From assembly GCF_045037415.1 (NCBI RefSeq), contig NZ_CP173439.1: DNA of 64,000 bases; one strand, written 5' to 3'. Under the pieces are notes generated by a model. That model did no database searches, was not told where the DNA came from, and saw only the letters and a program-made list of their open reading frames with translations. The stretch comes from Escherichia coli. Its GTDB lineage: Bacteria; Pseudomonadota; Gammaproteobacteria; Enterobacterales; Enterobacteriaceae. The translations under genes were made by a program, and so were the position numbers. How positions within the stretch are numbered: the stretch's first letter is position 1; each line of letters starts with the position of its first letter. This document shows positions 1 through 56,503 of this stretch, piece after piece.

Positions 1-317
1 CTACCGGGGAGGAAGGAAAGTACCGGATGGAAAGAGTCCCCACTAAAGCAGACTGACAGACATCACAAATCCCCGGGAGGGGACTTGTGTATAAGAGACA
101 GCTCAGATACAGGGAAAGTGCAGAATGGCAACTATGATGTCTGGCGGCAATGCGAGTTCACCGGAACGATACATAGATTCTGTTTACCTCTCTCTCAACG
201 AGTTTAGTCTCCAGGATTCCCGGGGCGGTTCAGTCTGGCGACTCATCCTAATCATGCCTGTTTCCCATCCAACGGGAAAACCTGGGGTATTTCCCATATA
301 CTGGCCAGAGCATTTTC

Positions 318-1124
318 TCAGGATAATTGTTTCAGCATCACAACCGCATCAGATTCCGGCATCGCAAACTGCACCCGGTGCCGTGCAGCCACATCCAGCG
401 CAAACACCTTCGTGTAGACCTCCGTTGAGCTGATGGACTTATGCCCCATCAGGCTCTGCAGGACCTTCAGCGGTATACCGGCATACAGCATGTGCATCGC
501 ATAGGAATGGCGGAACGTATGTGGCGTGATCGGGACAGAGAACGTCACACCATCAGCGGCAGCGGCGGCAACCGCTTCCCCAATCCAGGTCCTGACCGTT
601 CTGTCCGTCACTTCCCAGATCCGCGCTTTCTCTGTCCTGCCTGTTCGTTTATTACGCCGTTCCATGGGGATTTTCAGTGTTGCCACCATCGTCTGCAGCT
701 GGCTGACGTACCAGGAGTCGGAGAGCGGGACCAGCCGGTGAGTCTGCTGACCGGCTGGCATTCTTCCTGCCGTCCTGGCGGCTTTTTCGGTCCGTTGTTT
801 CAGGGTCGCAAGCTGCACAAACGGATACGGAGGCGTGAGCGAAAAATCCCCCCGCGTCAGCGCTAGTGCTTCATTAATACGCGCGCCGGTGTTCCACAGA
901 GTGGCCAGCAGCATCTTGCGGCGCAGATCCGGGACATAATGAAGCAGGGCACTCACCTCGGGAGCCAGCAGATATTTCGGCAGTTCATCATGAACCATCG
1001 ACATCTGGCGGAGTGCCAGAGCTGCCGGATAATCAATGGCAACAGGAAGTTGTGCAGACTGTCCGGCAGAATACACTGCCGGTACCATGGCTGCAGACTG
1101 GCTGTGTATAACGGAGCCTGACAT
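318..1124 (-). CDS. resD: ResD tyrosine site-specific recombinase (F-plasmid D protein, multimer resolution)
   Basis: 268-aa ORF; translation matches F-plasmid ResD as recalled (MSGSVIHSQSAAMVPAVYS..., HxxR/Y recombinase C-terminus); sits directly downstream of ccdB as in F. Confidence 0.85.
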   Translation of the reverse strand: MSGSVIHSQSAAMVPAVYSAGQSAQLPVAIDYPAALALRQMSMVHDELPKYLLAPEVSALLHYVPDLRRKMLLATLWNTGARINEALALTRGDFSLTPPYPFVQLATLKQRTEKAARTAGRMPAGQQTHRLVPLSDSWYVSQLQTMVATLKIPMERRNKRTGRTEKARIWEVTDRTVRTWIGEAVAAAAADGVTFSVPITPHTFRHSYAMHMLYAGIPLKVLQSLMGHKSISSTEVYTKVFALDVAARHRVQFAMPESDAVVMLKQLS

Positions 1125-1650
<526 letters not shown>

Positions 1651-2244
1651 AATGCACCTCATCTTACATACTCTCTGTACACCATTAAGTATACACCAGT
1701 ATTACGCTATAACATGCCTCCGGCAACGGAATATTGTTATCCAGCTATTATTAACACCACCATCAATAACTGACCTGAAAAGTAATCATGACAATAATAA
1801 CCTGCAATGTAGTAACCATGATAAATTACAGGATGACTGTTTTTCTATGATCCGATTTTTATCGGATTCAGGATTTTCCGGAAGTGAATCAGGATCAGTG
1901 AATAAGCGAAGCGATCTTTTCTGCCGCTGATGACTGGCTCGGGAACACGGGAAGAAACACAACATACAGTGTCATGTCAGCGGAGCGGGACACCACATCC
2001 TGTGAAAGCGGACCAGCGGGCGGCAGCGAAGGATCCGCGGATCCGGAACCACCAGAAACCGGATCTGCGTGATGAGAAAAGAGTAGTAGATATGATTTTA
2101 TATAAAAAACATAAAACCATACCAGGCGTGATGTTTGTCATAATATATAAATTCATACCTGATATGATATTTACCAAAGTAGAGATAAATTATTCGCTGT
2201 ATGATTTTACCTATTAATGCACATAATCAAATGGAGCATGCAGG

Positions 2245-2514
2245 ATGGATGAAAAAGTATACTTTCGCCTCAGCTATGAAACGATGACCGGCGATACGGA
2301 AGACTTCATTAACGCATGTATTGAACGGGCAAACCGTGCGGACTGCAACGATACCGATGCGGAGATTGCCCGCGCACGCAGCACCATTGAACTCTGGTAC
2401 TGTCTGGCACTCGCGGGGCGTGCCCCAGACGACGTCGCCGACAGGGATCATCTGCGGTTCACCGAAATGCTCCTGCGCGCCCCGACAGCAGAACAACGCG
2501 CATGTCAGCTGTAA
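2245..2514 (+). CDS. hypothetical protein (high-GC gene)
   Basis: 89-aa ORF divergent from ccdA; noticeably GC-rich relative to neighbours; no recognisable family. Confidence 0.35.
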   Translation: MDEKVYFRLSYETMTGDTEDFINACIERANRADCNDTDAEIARARSTIELWYCLALAGRAPDDVADRDHLRFTEMLLRAPTAEQRACQL

Positions 2515-3098
2515 CCTCCCGTGGGCCGTCGCCGCTGCAACGACGGGTGCTGATTGTGCTGGCTGCCCTTGATGAAAAACGGCCTGGCCCCGTGCTGACT
2601 CGGGACATAGAACGGGTGCTGGAGCGAAGCGGGGAAGCCCCGGTCTACGGACCAAACCTGCGCGCCTCCTGCCGGCGCATGGAAGCATCAGGCTGGCTTC
2701 GCACACTGCGCGCCCCGAATCTGCAGCTGGCTGTCGAACTGACGGACGCCGGCCGGGCCGTGGCACAGCCTCTGCTGCTGGCAGAACAGGACCGCCTCCG
2801 GGCAAAACAGCGCGCGGCAGAAGTCGTCGTACTGCCGCTGGTCCCGGCATCAGGTCTGCCCGCAGACGGCACTTCTGCCACTGATCTGGCGGTGGAGCTG
2901 AACGGCATGACGTATCAGGCCTGCCGTGGGGATTTTGTGGTACGTCTCGACGGCAGCACCTGTCTGCAGTTATGGAACAGAGAAGGCAAGGTGGTACGCC
3001 GGGAGGGCGATCCGCTGGAAGTGGCGCAGTGGCTGCAGGCCTGTCATGATGCCGGAATAAAAGTTCGTGTACAGGTTAATGAAAGTATCACCCCGTAA
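2502..3098 (+). CDS. hypothetical protein, possible winged-helix N-terminus
   Basis: 198-aa ORF overlapping the upstream ORF end; N-terminal LQRRVLIVLAALDE...VLTRDIERVLE resembles a DNA-binding fold; GC-rich. Confidence 0.45.
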   Translation: MSAVTSRGPSPLQRRVLIVLAALDEKRPGPVLTRDIERVLERSGEAPVYGPNLRASCRRMEASGWLRTLRAPNLQLAVELTDAGRAVAQPLLLAEQDRLRAKQRAAEVVVLPLVPASGLPADGTSATDLAVELNGMTYQACRGDFVVRLDGSTCLQLWNREGKVVRREGDPLEVAQWLQACHDAGIKVRVQVNESITP

Positions 3099-3165
3099 AA
3101 ACATGCCTGCACGATTCACACATCATCCCATGGTGGCAGCCGGTTAACTTTCCTGCACCACCAGT
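3075..3165. repeat. Inverted-repeat copy A (~90 bp) bounding the AT-rich lasso island; partner at 9035..9125
   Basis: Reverse complement of 9035..9125 matches this stretch with a few mismatches (shared ...ccccgtaaaaacatgcctgcacg...catcccatggtggcagccggttaactttcctgc...). Confidence 0.6.
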
Positions 3166-3463
3166 GGAAAGAGGCCATGAGCAGTCCGAACAAAAAACCA
3201 CCCGTGATACTTATAATAATGGCCTCACCGGCCACCATTCCTGACGGCCCCCAGTAGATAAACCACATTGCACATCCCCAGGAAATGCCCCATAAGCCCC
3301 CCGTCAGCACCGTGACCTGCCAGAACGGCATAAAGGGTAATGGCGGAAGCCGGATCCCCAGCCGCCAGAGAATACGCAGAAGAGGAGGGGCATAATTGCT
3401 CCGCCACATCTTTTTGCTGTCCATCAGGGCAATGGCCCGGGCTTTTTTCTGCTCAAAAGTCAC
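3116..3463 (-). CDS. hypothetical small membrane protein
   Basis: 115-aa ORF with hydrophobic helices (LWGISWGCAMWFIYW, IIISITGGFLFGLLMASF); its last ~17 codons are duplicated in inverted orientation near 9040..9090. Confidence 0.5.
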   Translation of the reverse strand: MTFEQKKARAIALMDSKKMWRSNYAPPLLRILWRLGIRLPPLPFMPFWQVTVLTGGLWGISWGCAMWFIYWGPSGMVAGEAIIISITGGFLFGLLMASFHWWCRKVNRLPPWDDV

Positions 3464-3573
3464 AGGAGTACCTCCGTTCCATGATGTAAACGTGACACAG
3501 TTTATTGTTATTGATTATTATTATCATTATGTTATCACGCACCAGTACACGATGACAATAAAGGAGAAACCAG

Positions 3574-3921
3574 ATGAAAGCGGATATATCTGTAAAGTAT
3601 TTTCTGAAAAGCCTGATACCAGGTTTCATTATTCTTACAGTTTTTTATCTGGGATGGAAAGATAACCAGGAAAATTCAAGAATGTTTTATGCGTTCATCG
3701 GATGCATTATCAGCTCCATTACTTTTCCTTTTTCAATGAAGATAATACAGAAAATGGTAATAAGGTTTACAGGGAAAGAAGTCTGGCAAAAAGACTTCTT
3801 TACTAATCCAGTTGGCGGAAGCTTAACTGTAATATTTGAATTATTCTGTTTCGTTATATCAGTTCCTGTAGTTGCCATTTACTTAATATTTATATTCTGC
3901 AAAACCCTTTCAGGAAAATGA
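3574..3921 (+). CDS. small polytopic membrane protein, unknown function (first gene of the AT-rich island)
   Basis: 115-aa ORF with about three hydrophobic segments; AT-rich codon usage like the lasso genes downstream. Confidence 0.5.
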   Translation: MKADISVKYFLKSLIPGFIILTVFYLGWKDNQENSRMFYAFIGCIISSITFPFSMKIIQKMVIRFTGKEVWQKDFFTNPVGGSLTVIFELFCFVISVPVVAIYLIFIFCKTLSGK

Positions 3922-4456
3922 AAGGGCATCATTATATGTCAGATACCAATAAGTTTATTGTTCTGCTCAATAAACTTATCATTAACAAGCGCACTCACAG
4001 CAGCCATAATAATTGCAAAACCCAGAATACCTACAAGGGTCCCCGGCATGACGGAAAACGTCCATGCGGTAACAGATGAAGTAGCTCTTCCTGCTGCCAG
4101 TGATTCAAGTTTTACAAAAAATGGACGCCAGTTATCTGTCCAGACAACCTTACCAAACTCAGTGCTCCAGTCAGCAAAATCGTTGCCTTCAGTACACCGT
4201 GTTTTCTCTTCAGCTCTCTTCTGGTTGATGTCGGCAAGCTGGCAACAAAAATTCTCTTTTTACGTCAAGAACGTCATTTGCATGTTTTTACTCATTTGTT
4301 CTGGCACTGACGTTATTTCTCGCCGAATTTACCGCAGATTCAGCAAAGGTGATTTTATTGTAACTGCAACACCTACCAGATGACGGAAAACGGGTGAACG
4401 GATTAGAGTACGATTTTTCCATTTCGTGATCTTCACCTCAGAACCCCACCATTGAT

Positions 4457-4475
4457 GATAAAAATGATTATCATT
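4457..4475 (+). promoter_or_regulatory. Fur-box-like sequence next to the precursor promoter
   Basis: gataaaaatgattatcatt matches about 13 of 19 positions of the Fur consensus GATAATGATAATCATTATC; inner tgattatcatt is one mismatch from tgataatcatt. Confidence 0.3.
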
Positions 4476-4479
4476 CGCA

Positions 4480-4507
4480 TTGACACTTTGAAATAAGTAG
4501 TTATATT
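4480..4507 (+). promoter_or_regulatory. putative sigma-70 promoter of the lasso precursor gene
   Basis: TTGACA (4480..4485), 16-bp spacer, TATATT (4502..4507); about 70 bp upstream of the precursor ATG, which has an AAGGA Shine-Dalgarno. Confidence 0.35.
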
Positions 4508-4576
4508 TTTCATGGTTATTGAGCAATTGGTAACCAATGTAGGTTGTAGGTGTTTCATTTTCATTAAGGAATATGT

Positions 4577-4765
4577 ATGAAAAAACAATCTAAAGAAGTG
4601 AAAACCTCTGGCTCTGAACATCGTGAAATTATGATAGAAATTGATGCCTCTAAATCGACGAACGGTACCGGTGGAGGCTCCATCATTGAAGGGTCATACA
4701 CTGTCTATCGCTGCGATGGCGGAAGTGTCCCCTCGCGTCCTTTTGGCCCCCCATTCTGTCCTTAA
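4577..4765 (+). CDS. putative lasso-peptide precursor (A gene)
   Basis: 62-aa ORF MKKQSKEVKTSGSEHREIMIEIDASKSTNGTGGGSIIEGSYTVYRCDGGSVPSRPFGPPFCP; good SD; immediately upstream of the cyclase; Thr near the leader end, Gly-rich core start, Glu at a ring-forming distance, aromatic and Cys residues in the tail. Confidence 0.6.
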   Translation: MKKQSKEVKTSGSEHREIMIEIDASKSTNGTGGGSIIEGSYTVYRCDGGSVPSRPFGPPFCP

Positions 4766-4892
4766 ATTTAAAGGCTGGTCATGATTGAAATATTCACTTC
4801 TCTCAAACGAAAGCAATGAATCCGATAATACAGGTATATTCGATAAAAAGGACGTCTTTTGTGGCGTCCTTACCTTAAGGAGATTATTACGA

Positions 4893-6281
4893 ATGTCTTT
4901 GGGGGATAAATTTACATCTGGATACCGTGGGATTAATGCCTTCAATAGTGGCGTGATAAAACTTCTTGTTGCCAGAGAAAATGACTGGATTGAAGAAAAA
5001 CTTAGTGCCATTTTAACTCAATCACCTCGTATTGATTTCGAACCACTCATTGCGAGTATAGTTTTTGGGCGTACTGAGGGGAAAACTTCATTATTTAAAA
5101 ATGTGGAATGTATTGTTCCTGGTTGCAGTTTTAAAATTGACCACACGCACAATGGTGCATCCGTAAGTGAATATATTGACTGGAATGCAATTTCATATAA
5201 GACATTACCGCACGACCCGGCAGAGATTCTTTTTCAGTCTGTATCTGAAGTCGTCAACAGAAATCAAGGCGGATACTTTGTTGTGCGCCTGTCTGGTGGC
5301 ATGGACTCTACTGGCATTCTTCTCTCACTAATGGAGGCAGTTGATGTAAGCAGAATTATTGCCATAACTTATCGGTACCTTATGGGGACAAGCAATCAAG
5401 ATGAAGTATCAGCAAGGTATTTATGTAAAATATTTGGAATCAGGCAAATAATAATTGATTTTGAACCTCATTCATTATTTCATAGGCTTCCTTCACCAGT
5501 GCCTCCTGTTCTAAATATGAGAACAATAAATTTTAAAGTTTATGAAGAGGAAAGAAAGCGTATCGGAAGTATCTGTGGAGATAATTATACCCTGTTTGAT
5601 GGGCATGGGGGGGACCATGTATTTTGTGAGAAAATCCCGTTTGGAATAATAAAAGAGTTATTTTTCCATGGGAGTTTGTTAACCTCATGCCGTAAGTTAT
5701 TACAGATAGCTCGCCTTCATGGCATAAATATGAAAGATGTCTTATTAATGCATACTAATAGTATGCATTATCTTATAACTGAAGCACAGTGTTATTTTTC
5801 CAAAGATGTTATAAAAAACCTTCACTATGACAGAAAAACAGTAAGTGAAGAAAGAAAGTCAGCCCTTCAGGAGGCTATTCTTGATAATGGGACGAGCCTG
5901 ACGCTGAGTCTTACGGAAAACGATATATTCCCTTTTACAGACCAGAGGATGATAGGCTATGGTCTGAAACTCAGAGTTGAGGAGTCATTTGATACTACAT
6001 CAAAACGATTTCAATACAGAAAAGCGATTAATGACAGATATAAATTTGTATTTACCAGAAAAGATAAGGGGCATATAACAGGTGCATATCAGTCGGCCCT
6101 TAGTGTTAATAAGGACCGTGTTATTAATCTTCTGCGCCATGGGCAGTTCGCGACACACGGTTTGTTAAACTTGGAGGGGGTAGAGCGAGCAATAGAAACA
6201 AGTTCTCATGGCATCGGTGGAGTCAGTTTTATTCTTATGAAATTAATTGCTGCAGAACTTATCTTTGAAGGATATTTATAA
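4893..6281 (+). CDS. lasso-peptide cyclase (asparagine synthetase B-like, C protein)
   Basis: ORF 4785..6281 with the likely start at ATG 4893 (AAGGAG SD); PP-loop ATP pyrophosphatase motif VVRLSGGMDSTGIL; size like McjC; stop overlaps the next start (TAATG). Confidence 0.75.
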   Translation: MSLGDKFTSGYRGINAFNSGVIKLLVARENDWIEEKLSAILTQSPRIDFEPLIASIVFGRTEGKTSLFKNVECIVPGCSFKIDHTHNGASVSEYIDWNAISYKTLPHDPAEILFQSVSEVVNRNQGGYFVVRLSGGMDSTGILLSLMEAVDVSRIIAITYRYLMGTSNQDEVSARYLCKIFGIRQIIIDFEPHSLFHRLPSPVPPVLNMRTINFKVYEEERKRIGSICGDNYTLFDGHGGDHVFCEKIPFGIIKELFFHGSLLTSCRKLLQIARLHGINMKDVLLMHTNSMHYLITEAQCYFSKDVIKNLHYDRKTVSEERKSALQEAILDNGTSLTLSLTENDIFPFTDQRMIGYGLKLRVEESFDTTSKRFQYRKAINDRYKFVFTRKDKGHITGAYQSALSVNKDRVINLLRHGQFATHGLLNLEGVERAIETSSHGIGGVSFILMKLIAAELIFEGYL

Positions 6282-6964
6282 TGACTTCATTCTACTTTAA
6301 GCCGAATATACATCATGTCAATATTAATAATGAAATAACTATCCTTGATGAGATATCTGATCGTTATATCCTTCTTTCAGAAAAGCAATCAATTCTCTTA
6401 AAAGAGTATATGAGTGATGGTTCTCATAATTATGTCGGTGATACAATGAACCTGGAAGGTATAATTTCTAAGGAGTCGGGTACTCCTTTGGCAAAGAGTA
6501 CTCCGTCTCCTCAGGGGGTTGGTATATTGACCTGGAACAGTTATGTCAGCACTCGGTTGGGTATTGCCAGTTTTTTTTATATCTCTGAAGCAATAATGAG
6601 AATGATTCTTGTCCGAAAACGTCTCCAGTCAAAGGGTTTTCACCATTGCCTTGAGCATTGTCGTTGTGCGCTTAGCCAGAAGAGTTTTCCGTACATTTCC
6701 CTGAAAGATAAATTAATTATTGGGCAGAAGTTGAGCCAGAGTATTAAAATTGCGGCACCGTTTATCCCGGGCAAGGTTAAATGCCTTGAGTTTTCACTTG
6801 TTTTGTTCGACATGTTAGTGTCAAGAAAAATCAGTCCCACATTATTTATTGGATTCCAGCGCTATGATTTTCTTTCTCATGCATGGCTGGAAATTGATAA
6901 TGAAGTGGTTGCAGACCAAGATAACCTGAAAACAAAACTTACACCAATAATTAGAGTGGGATAA
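6281..6964 (+). CDS. lasso-peptide leader peptidase (transglutaminase-like Cys protease, B protein)
   Basis: 227 aa; candidate Cys...His...Asp triad (KVKCLEF ... LSHAWLEIDNE) with spacing like McjB; translationally coupled on both sides. Confidence 0.7.
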   Translation: MTSFYFKPNIHHVNINNEITILDEISDRYILLSEKQSILLKEYMSDGSHNYVGDTMNLEGIISKESGTPLAKSTPSPQGVGILTWNSYVSTRLGIASFFYISEAIMRMILVRKRLQSKGFHHCLEHCRCALSQKSFPYISLKDKLIIGQKLSQSIKIAAPFIPGKVKCLEFSLVLFDMLVSRKISPTLFIGFQRYDFLSHAWLEIDNEVVADQDNLKTKLTPIIRVG

Positions 6965-8688
6965 TGAAAATAAAAAATGTCATTTGTGAATTAAAATCAG
7001 GGGCAAGTGCTTACTCTTCGGCCTACAAGCTCATACGCTCACTGTATCCCGCATTCACATTTTCTTTTATCGGTGTGTCCATTCTCTTTATTCTGGCTTC
7101 GGTTCTTGGTGCATTACTTCCTTATCTGCTCAAAAAGACAGCGGAGGCGTATACTTTCTCTGAAGGGATATTATCTGCATTTTTCCTGATCACAATGACC
7201 TACGCCGTCAGCTGGACAGTGACCGAAGTACTGAAGAATATCAGAGGCATTTTTTCTGCGGGAATTCTGGCACAAGCAGATGCAGCACTAACCAGTAACA
7301 CGATGGAGATTTTACTTTCTATTAGTTTCCGGAAACAAAAGGAATTTGAGCCGGCGGTCCTGGCTGCAAATATTGATCGTGGCGCGCAATCATTCAGTGC
7401 GCTGACATTATCTGTTTTCTGGACACTACTCCCAATTACTGTAGAAATCAGTATGGCTGTTTATTTTCTTTATCAGAGTCTGGGTTTTACTTATTCACTT
7501 ATTTTCTCAATTTCTGTTATAGGTATGATTTTTCTTGCCTTCAGCATAGCGATCTTTAGTCGTCATATCCATACCGATATAATGAATACTCAGAATGGGG
7601 TGTATTCTTATACGATTGAGCGACTTGCCATGCCGTTGGATATCCGAATTAATTCAGCTCATGCAAAAGAAAGAGTTCTTCGCCAGGAAATTCTTAATCA
7701 GTATGTTAATACAATTAAGCTGACCAATAAAAAAATGGGCTTTTTACTGTCACTACAGGCAGTAGCTGTAGGCGTATTGCTTGCTATATCCGTACTGGTT
7801 CTGGTTTTTTTTAAAAAAGCGTCTCATATTGGAACTGGTGACTTTATTATGATTGTGGGCTATATTAGCATGCTAACATTTCAGTTGCGCACAATAGCCG
7901 GAGCCAGCATTGACATTCAACGCCAGATTGTGTACCTGAAAATTCTTCTGGAATATAACAGTATGCATCCCGAAGGGGTTATCCCTGATACAGTAAGCTC
8001 CCGCAGCACTGAGCGTATTTTTGATGTGCGTAATCTTGGAGCTTTTGCTGACGGCAGACTCCTCTTTAATAATGTGAGCTTCAGGATCCATGAAGGTGAA
8101 ATGTTTGCACTTTCTGCGCCTTCAGGTTTTGGTAAATCCACAATTCTGCAATATTTACTCGGTCTTGATACCCCAACTGAGGGCGATATTTATTTCCGAG
8201 GATACCGGATTAACACAGAGTTGAGTGCGTCTATCCTGGAGGACGTTGCTGTTGTGCCTCAAAAAGCCGTTCTGGTGCAGGGAACTATTCGTGATAATAT
8301 TCTGTATGGAACCGATGACATTCTTCCCGATGATGAACTGTTTTGCATCCTGAATTCATTGGGGTTAATTAAAGAGGACTGCGGAGAACATTTCCTTGCT
8401 TTCCTAGACCGGGATATTAATCCTCTGGGTAGTGGTTTGAGTGGTGGAGAGATCCAGCGATTATGCATAGCCCGCGCCCTAGCCCGTAAGAAAAAGATTA
8501 TCGTACTTGATGAACCCACGGCCTCTATTGGCGAAGAACTCGCGATAAAGATCATTACCTATATCCGGCAGCATTGCCCTACCGTTATTATTACAACTCA
8601 TAATCCACGAATTCTGGAGCTCGCCGATCATTTTTTTGATGGTATGTCAAAGTCTTGCGTCATTGCTGGAGAAGGCAGAGACCAATAA
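6964..8688 (+). CDS. ABC exporter (fused permease-ATPase, McjD-like export/immunity, D protein)
   Basis: 574 aa; N-terminal multi-TM domain; Walker A APSGFGKST, signature LSGGEIQR, Walker B IIVLDEPT. Confidence 0.85.
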   Translation: MKIKNVICELKSGASAYSSAYKLIRSLYPAFTFSFIGVSILFILASVLGALLPYLLKKTAEAYTFSEGILSAFFLITMTYAVSWTVTEVLKNIRGIFSAGILAQADAALTSNTMEILLSISFRKQKEFEPAVLAANIDRGAQSFSALTLSVFWTLLPITVEISMAVYFLYQSLGFTYSLIFSISVIGMIFLAFSIAIFSRHIHTDIMNTQNGVYSYTIERLAMPLDIRINSAHAKERVLRQEILNQYVNTIKLTNKKMGFLLSLQAVAVGVLLAISVLVLVFFKKASHIGTGDFIMIVGYISMLTFQLRTIAGASIDIQRQIVYLKILLEYNSMHPEGVIPDTVSSRSTERIFDVRNLGAFADGRLLFNNVSFRIHEGEMFALSAPSGFGKSTILQYLLGLDTPTEGDIYFRGYRINTELSASILEDVAVVPQKAVLVQGTIRDNILYGTDDILPDDELFCILNSLGLIKEDCGEHFLAFLDRDINPLGSGLSGGEIQRLCIARALARKKKIIVLDEPTASIGEELAIKIITYIRQHCPTVIITTHNPRILELADHFFDGMSKSCVIAGEGRDQ

Positions 8689-8712
8689 ACCACACACGTT
8701 AATTCATTTATA

Positions 8713-8980
8713 TCTAATCGGGGTTGTACGCCGGAAACGCCGAAATTTCCGATACAGCGAATTTGTTGATTTTTGAAGCATGTTTGGCAGGTTTTGACGT
8801 GTACGTTTATGGTGCAGTAAGTGAGAATTTATTCGTACCAGCCATATGATACGTTACGGGCAGTGATTTTTCGCGCTAGACAGCTATTTCTTTGCTGTCC
8901 GGTTAACTGTGGTCTTACGTACAGGTTGCCGAGCATAAAATTTGTGCCTCCCGGAAATTTCGGCGTTTCCGGCGTACAAC
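8713..8980. mobile_element. miniature inverted-repeat element (~268 bp) with 32-bp perfect terminal IRs beginning GGGG
   Basis: GGGGTTGTACGCCGGAAACGCCGAAATTTCCG at 8713..8744 and its exact reverse complement at 8949..8980; no ORF between. Confidence 0.45.
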
Positions 8981-9034
8981 CCCAAATAAATTCAATTAAT
9001 TACCTAAACAAGGTGAGACTTTTAGAGGAAATGA

Positions 9035-9125
9035 GCGCGGAACCCCTCTTTCCACTGGTGGCGCAGGAAAGTTAACCGGCTGCCACCATGGGATGATGTG
9101 TAAACCGTGCAGGCATGTTTTTACG
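9035..9125. repeat. Inverted-repeat copy B (partner of 3075..3165)
   Basis: Contains an inverted duplicate of the 3' end of the 3116..3463 gene (reads ...SFHWWRRKVNRLPPWDDV*) plus its downstream sequence. Confidence 0.6.
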
Positions 9126-9137
9126 GGATGATGCTTT

Positions 9138-9169
9138 CATTTGGATATAGAGAATTATTGTACGTTCAG
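9138..9169. repeat. partial copy of a 38-bp Tn3-family-like terminal repeat (tttggatatagagaattattgtac...)
   Basis: Shares the core tttggatat.ga.aattattgtac with copies at 32001, 42145 and 56465. Confidence 0.4.
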
Positions 9170-9465
9170 CACAACAAACTTAATACTAATGTATGCATAC
9201 ATTAGCATTAACTACACATTTAAGACATTAACCATTAATAATGTGTATTATTACACAATATTACCCATCAGGAAGCACGTCGTCAGTATTAGAAAAAAAT
9301 TACAAACGCTCGCCGCAGGCCCAGCGACCGAACGTTAGTGAGCGAGGAAGCGGAAGAGTGTCAGGTCTGAATTGAGCACATACGCCAGAAATTATATAGT
9401 AAAAAGATATATGATTTTTACATTGCTCAGTAGATTGTAAAATGCTGCTGATTGGATATCTATAT

Positions 9466-9852
9466 CTAATTTAGAATAATGGCTTTAAGATGGTCAGAAA
9501 CCATCTTCCAGTTATATTCTCCTGTTGCAGCATTCAAAGCGATAATTTGCATTTCATCAAACGAAATACGTGAACTAATAATATGTACACCATTCCGTTT
9601 TAAAAAAACCTGTGCAACAAACAAGGCTGTTCGCTTATTTGCATCGTTGAAAATGTGACCACGAGCAATAGCAACTAAATACACGGCAGCCAGATCCATA
9701 ATATCTGTCACACCTTCATAATGATACATGTTCAAAACACGATGAATGATCGCGTCAGCGCGACCGGGTTCTGGCATACCCGCCACGCCACCATCACGCG
9801 AAATCAAGCGGTCATGAAACTCAATCACTTCCTGTGAACTAACGAATTTCAT
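9466..9852 (-). CDS. doc: Doc toxin (Fic/Doc family)
   Basis: 128 aa with the Doc motif HIFNDANKRTA; overall similar to P1 Doc as recalled; overlaps the phd stop. Confidence 0.8.
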   Translation of the reverse strand: MKFVSSQEVIEFHDRLISRDGGVAGMPEPGRADAIIHRVLNMYHYEGVTDIMDLAAVYLVAIARGHIFNDANKRTALFVAQVFLKRNGVHIISSRISFDEMQIIALNAATGEYNWKMVSDHLKAIILN

Positions 9853-10073
9853 CGCTTAGAAAGCTCCGTATAGGCCGTCCCATGACTTTGCATGATCTCA
9901 GCAAACTCAGCATCAAGAGCCGCTTTACGGTATCGTTCAAAAGCGTCTTTATCAACTAGTACAGCCGCGCCACCTTTACGGCGCTGAATCTCAACAGGCT
10001 GATTTTCATCAACCGCCAGCTCGAGCAACGAGGCCAGGTTATCGCGAGCATGGCTATAGTTACATGTAAACAT
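9849..10073 (-). CDS. phd: Phd antitoxin (Phd/YefM family)
   Basis: From internal Met: MFTCNYSHARDNLASLLELAVDENQPVEIQRRKGGAAVLVDKDAFERYRKAALDAEFAEI..., close to P1 Phd. Confidence 0.75.
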   Translation of the reverse strand: MFTCNYSHARDNLASLLELAVDENQPVEIQRRKGGAAVLVDKDAFERYRKAALDAEFAEIMQSHGTAYTELSKR

Positions 10074-10090
10074 AGTGCTTCCTCTTTGAG

Positions 10091-10111
10091 TTGTACAATT
10101 AAATTGTACAA
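10091..10111. promoter_or_regulatory. putative phd-doc operator: two TTGTACAA palindromes
   Basis: ttgtacaattaaattgtacaa about 20 bp upstream of the phd start; each 8-mer is self-complementary. Confidence 0.35.
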
Positions 10112-10260
10112 CAGTTCTGTTCAATATGAAATCACCGTAGTAAGGGGGGCGTGCCCATTTCCTCTAAAAGTCTCACCTTTATTATGTAATTAATTGAGTT
10201 TATTTAGAAAATGTTGCAATTTTAGCATCATTTTTTATTGTTCTTTTTAACCTGAAGTAG

Positions 10261-10297
10261 GGGGCCGCTTGGAATTCGGAAATTTTCCCACGCTAAG
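10261..10297. repeat. Tn21/Tn1721-subgroup-like 38-bp terminal IR remnant abutting IS21 copy 1
   Basis: GGGGCCGCTTGGAATTCGGAAATTTTCCCACGCTAAG resembles the Tn1721 IR as recalled (GGGG...AATTCGGAAA...ACGCTAAG). Confidence 0.4.
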
Positions 10298-10357
10298 TGT
10301 CAACGCCACGATGTTTGACCGTTATTTGCCATTTTCATGCCCGCTAAGATACTTTCG

Positions 10358-12327
<1,970 letters not shown>

Positions 12328-13153
12328 GTTGATGTCCTTTCTGGTGTGAGAACCTTAAGGAAACAACATGTTGGGTGGAGCGGACAATCCAAATGGTGAA
12401 TTACCGTCTTATATCACTGGCGCTGACACGGCGTAGAACCCCGAGAAAACGAGAGCATGAAAACCCCCAGGACAGTCACTGAATGGGGGACCAGCAGCGG
12501 TAAAATAACCGACATAATTTCATAATGATGCCTCCGTTAGTTATGAAGGTTTGCGGGCTGACTATACTGTTGGTGCCTGAGCAGAACTGAAGGATTGAGC
12601 GTGTTTCTGATGGAGAGTTCCACAGGTATCCACGAGATTGATTATGCCACCAGAAACACGCTCGGATGCGTTTTAACGTTACTTTTACTGGCAGGCAAGG
12701 TTTCTTTGTTTTATTTGTATTCTGACTCTCAGAATGACTCTGTTCGCTCCATAAATATTAAAATTATCAGGTAGAAGAACTCTCTTTTGTACAACTTAAC
12801 TGTGTCTTTATGGAAATGTTGTAAAGGTTCTTTTCTTTAGCTGTATCGTATTTAAATATACTTTTCTGTAAGTGGAATCTTTGCATAAGATAATAAAAAA
12901 CAGCAAATTATATTAATGGTTATGATATCCTGGGAACACCTGATTAACTAATAAGTTATTTTAATAAAAACATCTGCACTGGCAAATAATTGTACCCCCT
13001 TCAATAGGAATATTCTTATTTAATGGCCTTGTTTATATTCTAAAAATAAAACTGAGAAACTCATCATATATTTGGTAAGAAAACGCACCGGTGAACACTA
13101 TCATGAGGCTATACTGCACTTCCTCAAATTGGGATATTATGATGCATTGATTC

Positions 13154-32000: not shown

Positions 32001-32038
32001 GTGAATGTTGGGGGCAGTTTGGATATCGAAAATTATTG
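32001..32038. repeat. 38-bp Tn3-family-like terminal repeat copy (GGGGCAGTTTGGATATCGAAAATTATTGTACGTTAAGG)
   Basis: Starts GGGG, ends ...GTTAAG like Tn3-family IRs; related copies at 42145 and 56465. Confidence 0.45.
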
Positions 32039-32042
32039 TACG

Positions 32043-32389
32043 TTAAGGTTGTTTTTTGACCTTGTCGGGGTCCGCCTGCGGGCAGTAGAGATCATATAAG
32101 GTATTCAATAACGTCATGATGCGGTTATCCCCGATACGGTAATATACCATTTTACCTGCCCGTCGGGTTCGACCAGCTTCAGGCGACGCATGACACCCAA
32201 CTGCTGAGACAGGGTCGGCTGAGTGATACCGACCGCCGCTTCCAGCTCGGTCACATTCGCTTCCCCCTGGCTTAACTGACACATCAACAATAGCCGGTCG
32301 CTGTTGGCCAGTCCCCGTAGGACATCTGCTGCCCCCAGGGCTGCATTTTTCATATCAGTCTGACGTTTTGTGTCTTCATTCATGGGCAT
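32043..32389 (-). pseudogene. ArsR/SmtB-family regulator (BigR/YgaV-like), apparent frameshift
   Basis: HTH region (NVTELEAAVGITQPTLSQQLGVMRRLKLVE) in one frame and the expected wing (GKMVYYRIGDNRI...LYDLYCP) in an overlapping frame; break near a G-run around 32160..32200. Confidence 0.55.
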
Positions 32390-32510
32390 TGCTGGTTTCT
32401 TATATTATGTATTTTTATATAATATTGTTCAGTATAATGATAGTGGCGTAATTTTGCCACCGTGATCTTCAGGTCTGCAGCGTCCAGCTGGACCGGGTAA
32501 CTAATTATAT

Positions 32511-34208
32511 ATGGCAGATATTTTGCCCCGAGTGAACAGAGAGGATGTAATGAAAATAGTGATTGTTGGTGGTGTTGCCGGGGGAGCATCCGCTGCAGCC
32601 AGGGCTCGTCGGTTATCAGAGGATGTCAGTATTGTTGTGTTTGAGCGGGGAAGCGATGTCTCTTTCGCCAACTGTGGATTGCCTTATCATATAGGCGGAA
32701 AAATTCCGTTACGGCAGTCGCTGATTCTGAAAACCCCGGAGGATTTTAAATCCCGTTTTAACATAGACGTCCGTATCCGTCATGAAGTGATGTCAGTAGA
32801 CCCGGTTAATAAGATGGTGACGGTTAAAAATCTGACCTCCGGGGAGGTCTATACCGAAGAATGGGATCGTCTGCTCCTCAGTACCGGTGCCGCTCCGGTT
32901 GTTCCCCCCTTGCCCGGACTACAGGAAGCGGGTGTCTTTACACTGCGAAATCTTACTGACATGGATGCTATCCAGGCGTGGATTGAGCAACATAATATCG
33001 CTCACACCACGCTTGTCGGGGGGGGATTTATCGGGCTCGAAGTGATGGAGGCACTGAGCGAAAGGGGGATCAGTGTGACCCTGCTGGAGATGGGGGAACA
33101 GGTTATGGCTCCGGTTGATCCTGAAATGGCATCGGCCCTGCATCAGGAAATCAGGAGTCATGGCGTGGATCTGCGTCTCAGAACGGCGCTCACCGAGGTA
33201 CTGCGGACAGAGACGGGATTCCGCGTTGCACTGTCTGACGGTGGGTTTCTGCAGACCGACATGGTTATTCTCGCCATCGGGGTAAAACCTGAGAGCAGCC
33301 TTGCCACAGGAGCCGGGCTCGCCGTGGGTAAACGGGGAGGCATAAGTGTCAATGCCTGTATGCAGACAAGTATCCCTGACATCTATGCCGTGGGGGATGC
33401 AGTTGAAACACCTGACCTTGTCTTTCAGGAACCCGCTAATGTTCCTCTGGCAGGGCCAGCCAACCGCCAGGGACGCATTGCTGCTGATAATATGCTCGAT
33501 CGTCACAGCCTTTACCATGGCAGTCAGGGGACATCCATTTGTAAGGTATTTTCGCTGAGTATTGGCAGTGTCGGGGCGAATGAAAAGCAGCTGAAAGCCC
33601 ATGGTACCCGATACGAGAAGGTTTACGTCCATGCCGCTGATCATGCCAGTTACTACCCGGGGGCAACAATGATCAGTCTGAAACTGCTGTTCAGCCCCGA
33701 TACCGGTAAAATTCTCGGGGCCCAGGCGTCAGGGAAAAAAGGGGTTGATAAACGCATCGATGTCCTGGCTGTCGTACAGCGCGCGGGGCTTACCGTTAAC
33801 GATCTCGAGCATCTGGAGCTGACCTATGCTCCGCCTTTCAACAGTGCAAGGGACGTCGTTAACCAGGCTGGAATGGTGGCGGCAAATGTTATCAAGGGTG
33901 ATACGGTCATCTGTCATGTCCGCGATGTGTTACAACGGGAACCGGGCAGTTATTGTTTACTTGATATTCGTTCTCCTGCAGAACTGAAACAATTTGGTGA
34001 ATATCCTGACGCGCTATCCATCCCTCTTGATTCCCTGCGGGAGAATCTTGATAAGTTGCCTGAAGATAAAGAGATTATTATCGGGTGTCAGAGTGGTCTG
34101 CGGGGGCATGTGGCATACCGTATGCTTCAGTCTCACGGCTTCCGGACATATAATCTGAGTGGTGGTTTTATAACTTGGCAGGCGGTTACGGAATCAATGA
34201 GTCAATAA
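32511..34208 (+). CDS. CoA-disulfide/persulfide reductase with C-terminal rhodanese domain
   Basis: 565 aa; FAD-binding GGVAGG start, pyridine-nucleotide disulfide oxidoreductase core with redox Cys (SFANCGLPY), C-terminal rhodanese with active-site Cys (IIIGCQSGLRG). Confidence 0.85.
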   Translation: MADILPRVNREDVMKIVIVGGVAGGASAAARARRLSEDVSIVVFERGSDVSFANCGLPYHIGGKIPLRQSLILKTPEDFKSRFNIDVRIRHEVMSVDPVNKMVTVKNLTSGEVYTEEWDRLLLSTGAAPVVPPLPGLQEAGVFTLRNLTDMDAIQAWIEQHNIAHTTLVGGGFIGLEVMEALSERGISVTLLEMGEQVMAPVDPEMASALHQEIRSHGVDLRLRTALTEVLRTETGFRVALSDGGFLQTDMVILAIGVKPESSLATGAGLAVGKRGGISVNACMQTSIPDIYAVGDAVETPDLVFQEPANVPLAGPANRQGRIAADNMLDRHSLYHGSQGTSICKVFSLSIGSVGANEKQLKAHGTRYEKVYVHAADHASYYPGATMISLKLLFSPDTGKILGAQASGKKGVDKRIDVLAVVQRAGLTVNDLEHLELTYAPPFNSARDVVNQAGMVAANVIKGDTVICHVRDVLQREPGSYCLLDIRSPAELKQFGEYPDALSIPLDSLRENLDKLPEDKEIIIGCQSGLRGHVAYRMLQSHGFRTYNLSGGFITWQAVTESMSQ

Positions 34209-34486
34209 GAGATGAGGTGCCATACACATGGCACCTCATCTTCCAGATTCATTGAAAACGTATTATATGGAATAGAAATCTACAAAAATAATTAACACCC
34301 TGGATGGTACCCTATTGCGATAATGTGGACTGTTCAAAAAACAGGCTTACCGTACAATAATTCTCTATATCCAAACTGACCCCAATGTTCCTGAATGTAA
34401 ATCTCCGTACAAAGATATCGTTGAGTTTTATATAATTCATTGTTTTTATTGTGTTTTGTTTTTTTTGGTTGTGCTGGTTTGTAGTT

Positions 34487-41804: not shown

Positions 41805-42067
41805 TCGGGGGGAAAAAACATGGGATAAAAACTCCGTTATTCCACTAAACTGGCCGGACTAGGAAAAGCAAACATCTCTGTCCTGCCGGTACGCCTGTTA
41901 CGCCGCTCCATGAGGCTGAGGAATCTCCAGAAAACGAGACAGGCACAGCATTGTACGATCAACTGATTTGTGCCAATAATTAAATGAAATCACAGCTATG
42001 CCTGTTCATGGGGTTCTAGGCCGGAACCCCAGATTTTTCCGATTGTTTGTTTTCTAACTGATTATTC

Positions 42068-56464: not shown

Positions 56465-56503
56465 GGGGTCAGTTTGGATATAGAGAATTATTGTACTATA
56501 AGG
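56465..56503. repeat. 38-bp Tn3-family-like terminal repeat copy (GGGGTCAGTTTGGATATAGAGAATTATTGTACTATAAG)
   Basis: 38 bp from GGGG to TAAG; forms the junction that truncates scsC. Confidence 0.5.

Follow-up and report, generated by a model that had tools for sequence, protein, structure and literature searches.

A long inverted repeat around a plasmid-borne lasso-peptide cluster of Escherichia coli is probably a rearrangement scar between Tn3-family transposon ends

Introduction

Does the long inverted repeat that brackets a plasmid-borne lasso-peptide cluster in Escherichia coli mark the ends of a mobile module, or is it the residue of some other event? The question is raised by a 64,000-nucleotide stretch of contig NZ_CP173439.1 (assembly GCF_045037415.1), referred to here as the window, in which a first-pass annotation had taken the cluster and its AT-rich surroundings for a horizontally acquired module bounded by an inverted duplication. 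We find that the repeat is probably an orphan fragment of plasmid backbone, that is, the scar of a rearrangement, and neither a boundary of the island nor a working part of a mobile element, and we extend this degree of confidence to the explanation as a whole, including the origin of the two arms from two copies of one backbone locus. The nearest known things are the ends of Tn3-family transposons, their miniature derivatives and the mosaics that these leave behind (PMC4133298, PMC13367494), among them the documented Tn3-derived miniature element MITESen1 (PMC13367494).

Results

Geometry of the inverted repeat

A repeat scan of positions 2000-11000, together with base-by-base comparison, detected a single long inverted repeat of about 95% complementarity, with arms at 3078-3174 and 9045-9141. 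Each arm is 97 nt long, and 92 of the 97 positions are complementary without any gap, the five mismatches falling at 3086, 3091, 3114, 3117 and 3157. The repeat that had been placed at 3075..3165 and 9035..9125 is therefore real, and its position was correct to within about 15 bp. All four edges are sharp, with similarity collapsing directly outside the arms, which lie 5.9 kb apart on the same replicon; BLAST of the arm against the whole window returned these two copies and no third, for a chance expectation for a 97-bp repeat of about 3e-39. The left arm holds the last seven codons of a 198-aa hypothetical gene, hyp198, a 17-nt spacer, and the stop codon and about 19 codons of the gene for a DUF6404 membrane protein.

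Outside the arms there is no target-site duplication, since AGGTT (3073-3077) and TGGAT (9142-9146) share none of their 2- to 9-mers in register. Between the arms, open reading frames and annotation give the DUF6404 gene, an immunity gene, a colicin remnant and the lasso genes A, C, B and D, and no transposase or site-specific recombinase.

The left arm is resident backbone

The left arm (3078..3174) is not island DNA but the resident junction of two convergent backbone genes, because it is collinear with the IncI-gamma colicin locus and native in thousands of plasmids. These genes are hyp198 (2502..3098, + strand), an open reading frame that is annotated in NZ_CP091758 and adjoins DUF6404 in IncI and IncF plasmids, and the intact DUF6404 gene itself (3116..3463, - strand), supported by open reading frame and annotation and 95% identical in amino acids to the copy in the plasmid locus L012; the arm is collinear with the native loci in L003, L006, L012 and L014. 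NZ_CP091758, which is identical to the window over 1-13000, supplies the gene order: a resD-like integrase, ccdB, ccdA, 85-aa and 198-aa hypotheticals, DUF6404 (-) and a colicin-type immunity gene (+), followed by a 96-aa 'colicin-like pore-forming protein' fragment (-), the lasso genes, doc/phd and IS21. IncI-gamma plasmids with an intact colicin Ia/Ib gene show the same order of hyp85, hyp198, DUF6404, immunity and colicin, and the window aligns with them continuously over 2526-4133 at 94% and again over 4202-4359 at 85%.

The native 97-bp segment occurs in some 3,100-3,400 PLSDB records, nearly all of them annotated as DUF6404 and hypothetical protein, and more than 3,000 plasmids hold the left-arm junction without any lasso genes, so that, on the left at least, the repeat sequence exists natively where there is no island for it to bound. 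Colicin-free IncI and IncF plasmids retain hyp198 and 70-94 nt of the DUF6404 3' end.

Insertions are drawn to this short region: in CP057678 (L016), an IS21-family element sits in the hyp198/DUF6404 spacer at the equivalent of 3111/3112, inside the left-arm sequence, and other plasmids carry Tn3-family insertions at ~3330 and ~3587. The hyp85-hyp198 pair is present in two copies in CP057678.

The right arm diverges from its partner

The right arm (9045..9141) appears to be an orphan, non-coding sliver of a second hyp198/DUF6404 junction, inverted with respect to the first. Read on the + strand, it runs ...SFHWWRRKVNRLPPWDDV*, spacer, and then the reverse complement of ...NESIIP*, and no open reading frame continues from it on either side. 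It is 96/97 identical to the native copies in NZ_CP024291, an IncFIB/FIC plasmid of Shiga toxin-producing E. coli (STEC) O178:H19, and in at least 12 other plasmids, but matches the left arm, only 5.9 kb away, at no more than 92/97. In keeping with this, the right arm encodes WWRRK, as do plasmids of the NZ_CP024291 type, whereas the DUF6404 gene of the window reads WWCRK (an Arg versus a Cys codon). When plasmid records were banded by the identity of their best matching place, about 1,570 fell at >=95% and 1,580 below, with the left arm itself at 94.8%, which suggests that the left arm may be no closer to the right arm than the copy of a typical plasmid is. The claim that the repeat duplicates the end of the neighbouring gene accordingly does not stand.

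Because the right arm is nearer to other plasmids than to the left arm, we favour a second, diverged copy of the backbone locus, of which the right arm would be the leftover, over a local duplicate. A local inverted duplication of the left arm, for instance through template switching or fold-back repair, with later divergence or replacement of the left arm, would account for two copies 5.9 kb apart on one replicon and for their pairing in ~14 near-identical IncF plasmids. We nevertheless consider it improbable: five of the 97 positions separate the two arms, whereas the island DNA around them is conserved among plasmids at 99.7-100%, the near-identical copies of the right arm lie in unrelated STEC plasmids, and roughly half of the matching plasmid records are at least as near to the right arm as the left arm is. 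Furthermore, what borders the right arm on either side is a junction with a transposon end and no duplication joint, and the right arm travels without an adjoining left arm in the plasmids L002 and L013.

Both edges of the right arm are Tn3-family termini

Two transposon ends face the right arm, one from each side, and the arm is what remains of the target DNA between them, a sliver. At its inner edge stands a 63-bp Tn3-family terminal fragment, I2L (8984..9046, - strand), whose GGGG terminus (9043-9046) abuts the arm with a 2-nt overlap, so that, read on the - strand, ...GGAAAGAGG runs directly into GGGGTTCCGCGCTCATTTCCTCTAAAAGTCTCACC... The fragment is the inverted partner of 10144-10205, at 89% identity. 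There the I2-type block has an equally sharp start at 10144, beyond phd, and extends into a serine-recombinase gene, of which it takes in the last ~19 codons; this gene is intact in the O104:H4 pAA plasmid. The I2-type terminus begins at the same base beside unrelated DNA in five contexts, namely the two window sites, L007, L008/L014 and L018, and the first 38 nt of I2L match 24/38 positions of the inverted repeat (IR) GGGGTTCCGTGGGCATTTCTGCGATAACACACGCTAAG that closes a complete tnpR-tnpA Tn3-family transposon in CP057792 (L013). The sharp shared terminus, the partner at 10144 and the 24/38 IR match lead us to conclude that a Tn3-family element probably ended inside DUF6404 in the donor, 19 codons before the stop, where the cutting end sequence reads GGGGTTCCGCGCTCATTTCC...

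At the outer edge lies a truncated IR of MITESen1 type (9140..9169, + strand) comprising positions 9-38 of that repeat. In L011, the missing outer 8 nt, GGGGTCAG, precede the same sequence at the same position and give a complete 38-bp IR, beginning GGGGTCAGTTTGGATATAG..., that matches the MITESen1 IR of pLAO96 at 36/38. In the window, the remainder and the right arm are joined within a TCA/TT microhomology, reading ...GCTTTCA(TT) and then TTTGGATATAGAGAATTATTGTACGTTCAG, with the join 21 nt before the hyp198 stop. Given the loss of the first 8 nt and the position of the join within the microhomology, this junction is an imprecise fusion and not a clean insertion. When the candidate termini around the arm were inspected for Tn3-type structure, those at 9009-9046, 10144-10183, 10260-10297, 8720-8757 and 8946-8983 proved to be ~38 bp long with GGGG at the outer end, 9140-9169 being the exception. 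No target duplication of 5 bp (or 6 bp) was found at the junctions around the right arm.

The MITESen1-type IR has transposed in this lineage. Its terminus occurs in independent contexts (L011, L017 and window positions 32010, 34383 and 56465), and a 2,374-bp element at 32010-34383, with MITESen1-type IRs at 32010-32047 (+) and 34346-34383 (-), is flanked on both sides by the direct repeat AATGTT, on which the conclusion rests. The earlier view that the insertion mechanism was unclear for want of a transposase thus overlooked the Tn3-family termini at both edges of the right arm as well as the CP057792 transposon.

A variant of the history with a single ColV-type IncF ancestor, resembling pH2332-166 (L009), can be built from the same termini. 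Here the hyp198 3' end would have been the target of an intramolecular transposition of inversion type that flipped the whole DUF6404 cassette, and an I2-type element would later have removed most of DUF6404. In pH2332-166, the arm and the IR lie 486 nt apart on opposite sides of DUF6404, with the IR, here a degenerate copy, ~200 bp upstream of that gene, and, judging from the Tn3-family mechanism, inversion-type transposition predicts the order that is observed, namely the DUF6404 3' end, the reverse complement of the hyp198 3' end and an IR terminus facing it. However, the IR terminus at the junction is damaged, with 8 nt missing, the IR of L009 is 86% identical and its arm 94/97, less close than in the STEC plasmids, and no intermediate was found; we regard this variant as unlikely.

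In appearance, the 2,374-bp element is a cargo transposon of Tn3 type, non-autonomous and with its target duplication intact. Its single open reading frame of 565 aa (32511-34208) resembles CoA-disulfide reductase at 491 bits, below the equivalog cutoff of 579. A further solo MITESen1-type IR (GGGGTCAGTTTGGATATAGAGAATTATTGTACTATAAG) is present at 56465-56502, and positions 42010-42041 match, at 31/32, the IR that closes the Tn3-family transposon to the left of the island in NZ_CP027324.

Distribution and boundaries in related plasmids

The junctions on the right, which join I2L, the sliver and the truncated IR, are confined to lasso plasmids: 19 full-length PLSDB records and NZ_CP027324, or ~20 of 72,556 plasmids, carry them, as do 17+1 of 5,426 complete E. 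coli genomes. Over 1-13000, the window is matched almost perfectly by about 14 IncF plasmids, copies of the lasso region that are >99% identical occur in IncFIA/FIC, IncFIA/FII, IncK2/Z and IncI-gamma/K1 plasmids, and the island DNA around the arms is, as mentioned, nearly invariant among plasmids.

The extent of the shared segment varies. In CP057792 (IncFIA/FII) it spans ~3330-10297 and is met on the left by the IR of the complete tnpR-tnpA transposon, and in NZ_CP027324 (IncK2/Z) it spans 3587-9150, with a tnpA 3' end and IR on the left and a Tn3-type miniature element inside the truncated IR on the right. In NZ_CP097714 (IncK2/Z) it is reduced to 4266-8719 and preceded by an inverted 621-bp end fragment of the CP057792 transposon, and in NZ_CP132731 (IncI-gamma/K1) the same 4266-8719 segment, the smallest lasso segment common to the plasmids, is abutted in the same way. 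The right arm is present in CP057792 and NZ_CP027324 with no left arm beside the island, and neither arm adjoins the lasso genes in NZ_CP097714 and NZ_CP132731; the latter has a native hyp198/DUF6404 locus 7 kb from its lasso genes. The breakpoints of the relatives thus lie at ~3330, ~3587 and 4266 on the left and at 8719, ~9150 and 10297 on the right, none of them at an arm edge. One transposon end is common to L013 and L008/L014, inverted in L008/L014, and the idea that one and the same Tn3-family element stands beside the island in all relatives was rejected, since that of L002 differs. All relatives retain part of the colicin remnant, so the junction of the lasso DNA with the colicin gene predates the spread.

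These boundaries bear on the reading in which the arms would form the terminal inverted repeats of a mobile element, with the immunity gene, lasso genes and exporter inserted by it as one unit. A long inverted repeat of high identity around AT-rich cargo is what such an element would present, yet we find this hardly credible, for direct repeats are missing from the flanks and a transposase or integrase from the interior, the left arm belongs to the coding sequence of a pair of backbone genes in the cargo-free plasmids counted above, cargo boundaries in the relatives never coincide with the arms, and DUF6404, the immunity gene and the colicin remnant stand beside the left arm in native colicin Ia/Ib synteny. 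Of the supposed module bounded by an inverted duplication, horizontal acquisition therefore holds, in view of the >99% identical copies on several replicons, and the proposed bounds do not. Similarly, the statement that no transposase or integrase lies inside is borne out by the open reading frames between the arms, but a miniature element and Tn3-family ends lie at and beyond the right arm.

It might also be argued that the arms are kept as a recombination switch that inverts the 5.9-kb segment, or as a structured RNA or terminator. At 97 bp and 95% identity, a repeat is of sufficient length for RecA-dependent inversion to occur from time to time, and the arm does contain an imperfect hairpin. 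Against a switch, a 920-nt chimeric query mimicking the flipped junction was matched with >=80% coverage in 0 of 72,556 plasmids, and all carriers of the right-arm junctions have a single orientation; against an RNA, the fold z-scores (+0.6 to -1.4) are not significant, Rfam gave no match in 2000-10500 at E<=1, and no terminator-like site was found within the arm. We consider such a role very improbable. The arms function as nothing: they have no direct repeats outside them, no recombinase between them and no presence/absence polymorphism at their edges, and one of them consists of coding sequence of the host.

An island-free IncF plasmid near-identical to the left flank was not found, pETEC_80 not being collinear and CP057678 ending at 3111 with its IS21-family insertion. 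Shigella NZ_CP058848, the best match to the chimeric query for the flipped junction, was considered as a donor arrangement and rejected, as its copy of the miniature element lies upstream of hyp198 and its DUF6404 gene is intact. In the E. coli genome search with window positions 8690-9470, 2,393 of 5,371 matching places were chromosomal.

The lasso cluster and the extent of the AT-rich tract

The lasso-peptide cluster (4577..8688, + strand), identified from open reading frames, annotation and profile search, took the place of the 5' part of a colicin Ia/Ib gene and left the immunity gene intact. The latter, of colicin Ia/Ib type by annotation (3574..3921, + strand), falls within the stretch 2526-4133 that is 94% identical in DNA to native IncI colicin loci. 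The colicin remnant (3939..4359, - strand) retains, at 81% identity, the final 80 of the 626 colicin residues and has an internal deletion of ~300 bp relative to the intact gene; DNA homology to the colicin stops at 4359, and lasso-associated DNA starts at 4360. The gene order is A-C-B-D. A putative 62-aa lasso precursor (4577-4765), for which the profile search gave no family match, is followed by a candidate cyclase that is asparagine-synthase-like (4785/4893-6281), whose matches to macrolactam-cyclase families were all below cutoffs (56 bits versus 300), a lasso B protein (6281-6964) and an ABC exporter (6964-8688), all as open reading frames on the + strand. The B protein matches NF033537 lasso_biosyn_B2 at 82.4 bits against a cutoff of 33, as expected of a B-type, transglutaminase-like leader peptidase with the B2 domain.

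A literature search by protein accession, DUF6404 and lasso/colicin terms found no papers on this lasso cluster or junction. The cluster is rare: ~18 of 5,426 complete E. coli genomes contain the junction associated with it. It is spread over at least four replicon types, and one of its carriers, NZ_CP132731, encodes microcin B17 as well.

The GC content between the arms is 0.40, compared with 0.51-0.61 in the resD, ccd and hyp genes and 0.52 in IS21, which agrees with the first-pass annotation that this DNA is richer in AT than its flanks. The compositional boundaries, on the other hand, are not at the arms: the AT-rich tract extends from ~3464 to 10297, starting ~290 bp inside the left arm and ending ~1.15 kb beyond the right arm, and its first ~900 bp are native colicin immunity and colicin DNA.

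The right flank

Rightward of the exporter stop there follow 30 unassigned nt, a miniature element of 264 bp, I2L, the sliver and the truncated MITESen1-type IR, and then ~90 nt common to L011, a ColE1-like stretch, doc/phd, the second I2-type end, a solo IR and IS21. The 264-bp element (8720..8983) is where the lasso unit joins its surroundings on the right. It has 38-bp Tn3-family IRs, with arms that match each other at 33/38 and match, at 28/38, the IR beside a Tn3-family tnpA 3' end in L002; its open reading frames are only short and spurious, and it fits the structure of a TIME, a Tn3-derived inverted-repeat miniature element (50-500 bp, Tn3-type IRs, no transposase). Further copies are found at 6353-6617 and 16056-16319 of L014, 4991-5254 of L017 and 4001-4264 of L018. 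The six distinct contexts sampled (one shared by the window, L001, L002, L013 and L015, two in L014, and those of L017 and L018) contained no 5-bp direct repeats at the element. At 95% identity it also occurs in many IncI/K plasmids, in or beside sequence annotated as a 'colicin E5-related ribonuclease' gene. Its identification with MITESen1 was rejected, since outside the IR class it has no BLAST similarity to the pLAO96 copies.

Around the lasso cluster as a whole no TIME-COMP (a composite with a TIME at each end) or other composite transposon could be demonstrated, only one TIME-like copy being present, on the right. A candidate Tn3-type IR left of the precursor (4410-4447) was rejected, as it matches the genuine IRs at 17-19/38 and as 4360-4447, when aligned locally with TIMEs and transposon ends, stayed within the range of shuffled sequence.

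The doc and phd toxin-antitoxin genes (9466-9852 and 9849-10073, - strand), called from open reading frames and annotation, are 96% identical to the copy in an IncK2/Z plasmid. Their transport as MITESen1-type cargo was not supported, since in L010 separate miniature elements flank the module without a shared IR pair. Beyond them lie I2R (10144..10259, + strand), the second, diverged I2-type Tn3-family end, which holds the serine-recombinase codons and is inverted relative to 8984-9046, and a solo Tn3-family IR (10260..10297, + strand; GGGGGCCGC...ACGCTAAG), which matches the L013 IR at 22/38 and the MITESen1 IR at 25/38 and is cut directly by IS21 starting at 10298.

Just inside the truncated IR, at 9180-9211, there is a near-perfect 32-bp palindrome (TTAATACTAATGTATGCATACATTAGCATTAA) that could be an operator; in pH2332-166, two copies of it flank a gene for a 160-aa hypothetical protein. 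Between the truncated IR and doc, ~80 nt (9307-9385) are 77-85% identical to small ColE1-type plasmids (1.2-7 kb).

Discussion

We infer the order of events, and the recombination route that joined the pieces, from structures that are themselves observed, namely the anatomy, the sequences at the junctions, the pattern of divergence and the distribution among plasmids. A colicin Ia/Ib plasmid would first have gained the lasso cluster in place of the 5' part of its colicin gene. In a second plasmid of the same broad backbone family, two Tn3-family elements might then have come to lie 97 bp apart across the hyp198/DUF6404 junction, leaving a sliver of 93-97 bp that was cut on one side by a Tn3-family element and fused through microhomology to a MITESen1-type IR on the other. 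An exchange between Tn3-family copies, be it through a cointegrate and its resolution, through intramolecular transposition or through homologous exchange between copies of an element, could have set this block of end, sliver and end, inverted, to the right of the lasso cluster. The patchwork (at least 3330-10297) would thereafter have spread between backbones, with later Tn3-family insertions or adjacent deletions trimming it.

Several points weigh against this history. The contrast of one versus five mismatches rests on 97 nt only and could be blurred if the left arm has since undergone gene conversion. Since 8 nucleotides of the IR are missing, one step or more must have been illegitimate recombination in place of a clean transposition, and with no direct repeats in the sampled contexts, mobility of the TIME-like element itself is no more than putative. 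A donor plasmid with both transposon ends around an otherwise intact hyp198/DUF6404 locus was not found, and the history is to that extent a reconstruction.

The resemblance to Tn3-family ends and TIMEs is close in several respects. The 38-bp repeats of the window start with GGGG, one of them matches the MITESen1 IR in its complete L011 form, a transposase-less element of 264 bp is present, and a complete tnpR-tnpA transposon abuts the island in a relative. Some MITESen1 structures are likewise reported without direct repeats and at recombination joints (PMC13367494), as are the 264-bp copies here. In contrast to known TIMEs, the 264-bp element was matched to no named one, MITESen1 included, the cargo is a bacteriocin cluster instead of a resistance gene, and the lasso genes lack two flanking TIME copies. 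As with the terminal repeats of insertion sequences and composite transposons, the inverted copies bracket several kilobases of compositionally distinct genes, but target duplications and a cognate transposase are both lacking, one of the arms consists of coding sequence of the host, and the boundaries in relatives lie off the arms.

The window is collinear with the IncI colicin Ia/Ib locus over 2526-4359 at ~94% (85% over 4202-4359) with the immunity gene intact; it differs in keeping only the last 80 colicin codons and a fragment with an internal deletion, the rest having been replaced by the lasso cluster. With microcin J25 mcjABCD the cluster shares its plasmid location and its set of putative precursor, candidate asparagine-synthase-like cyclase, B-type protease and ABC exporter/immunity protein, and it differs in having the order A-C-B-D on one strand. 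The 62-aa precursor of the window is presumably unrelated to McjA. Taken together, the locus is an undescribed instance of a familiar phenomenon, and a new kind of element is not required.

The right flank being a patchwork of Tn3 ends, the region is mobile without a transposase of its own. We raise, as a rather doubtful possibility, that Tn3-family transposons and their miniature, TIME-like derivatives are moving the lasso cluster and the kept immunity gene about among IncF, IncK2/Z and IncI-gamma plasmids. If true, this would be a case of the spread of a bacteriocin cluster, of the class of peptides that are ribosomally synthesized and modified after translation (RiPPs), driven by TIMEs and Tn3 ends, with the 97-bp sliver as a passenger marking one event; the survey of TIMEs in PMC13367494 dealt with resistance genes only.

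The anatomy of the island is hereby corrected, with its insertion point at 4359/4360 in the colicin Ia/Ib gene and a right flank that is dense with Tn3-family ends. More interesting than the repeat itself may be its neighbours, namely a lasso peptide that displaces a colicin but keeps the immunity gene, and the density of Tn3-derived miniature elements in this plasmid family. The repeat is a molecular fossil of an encounter between two copies of a widespread backbone locus, which transposon ends cut down, and the junction of I2L, sliver and truncated IR is usable as a lineage marker for the lasso cluster.

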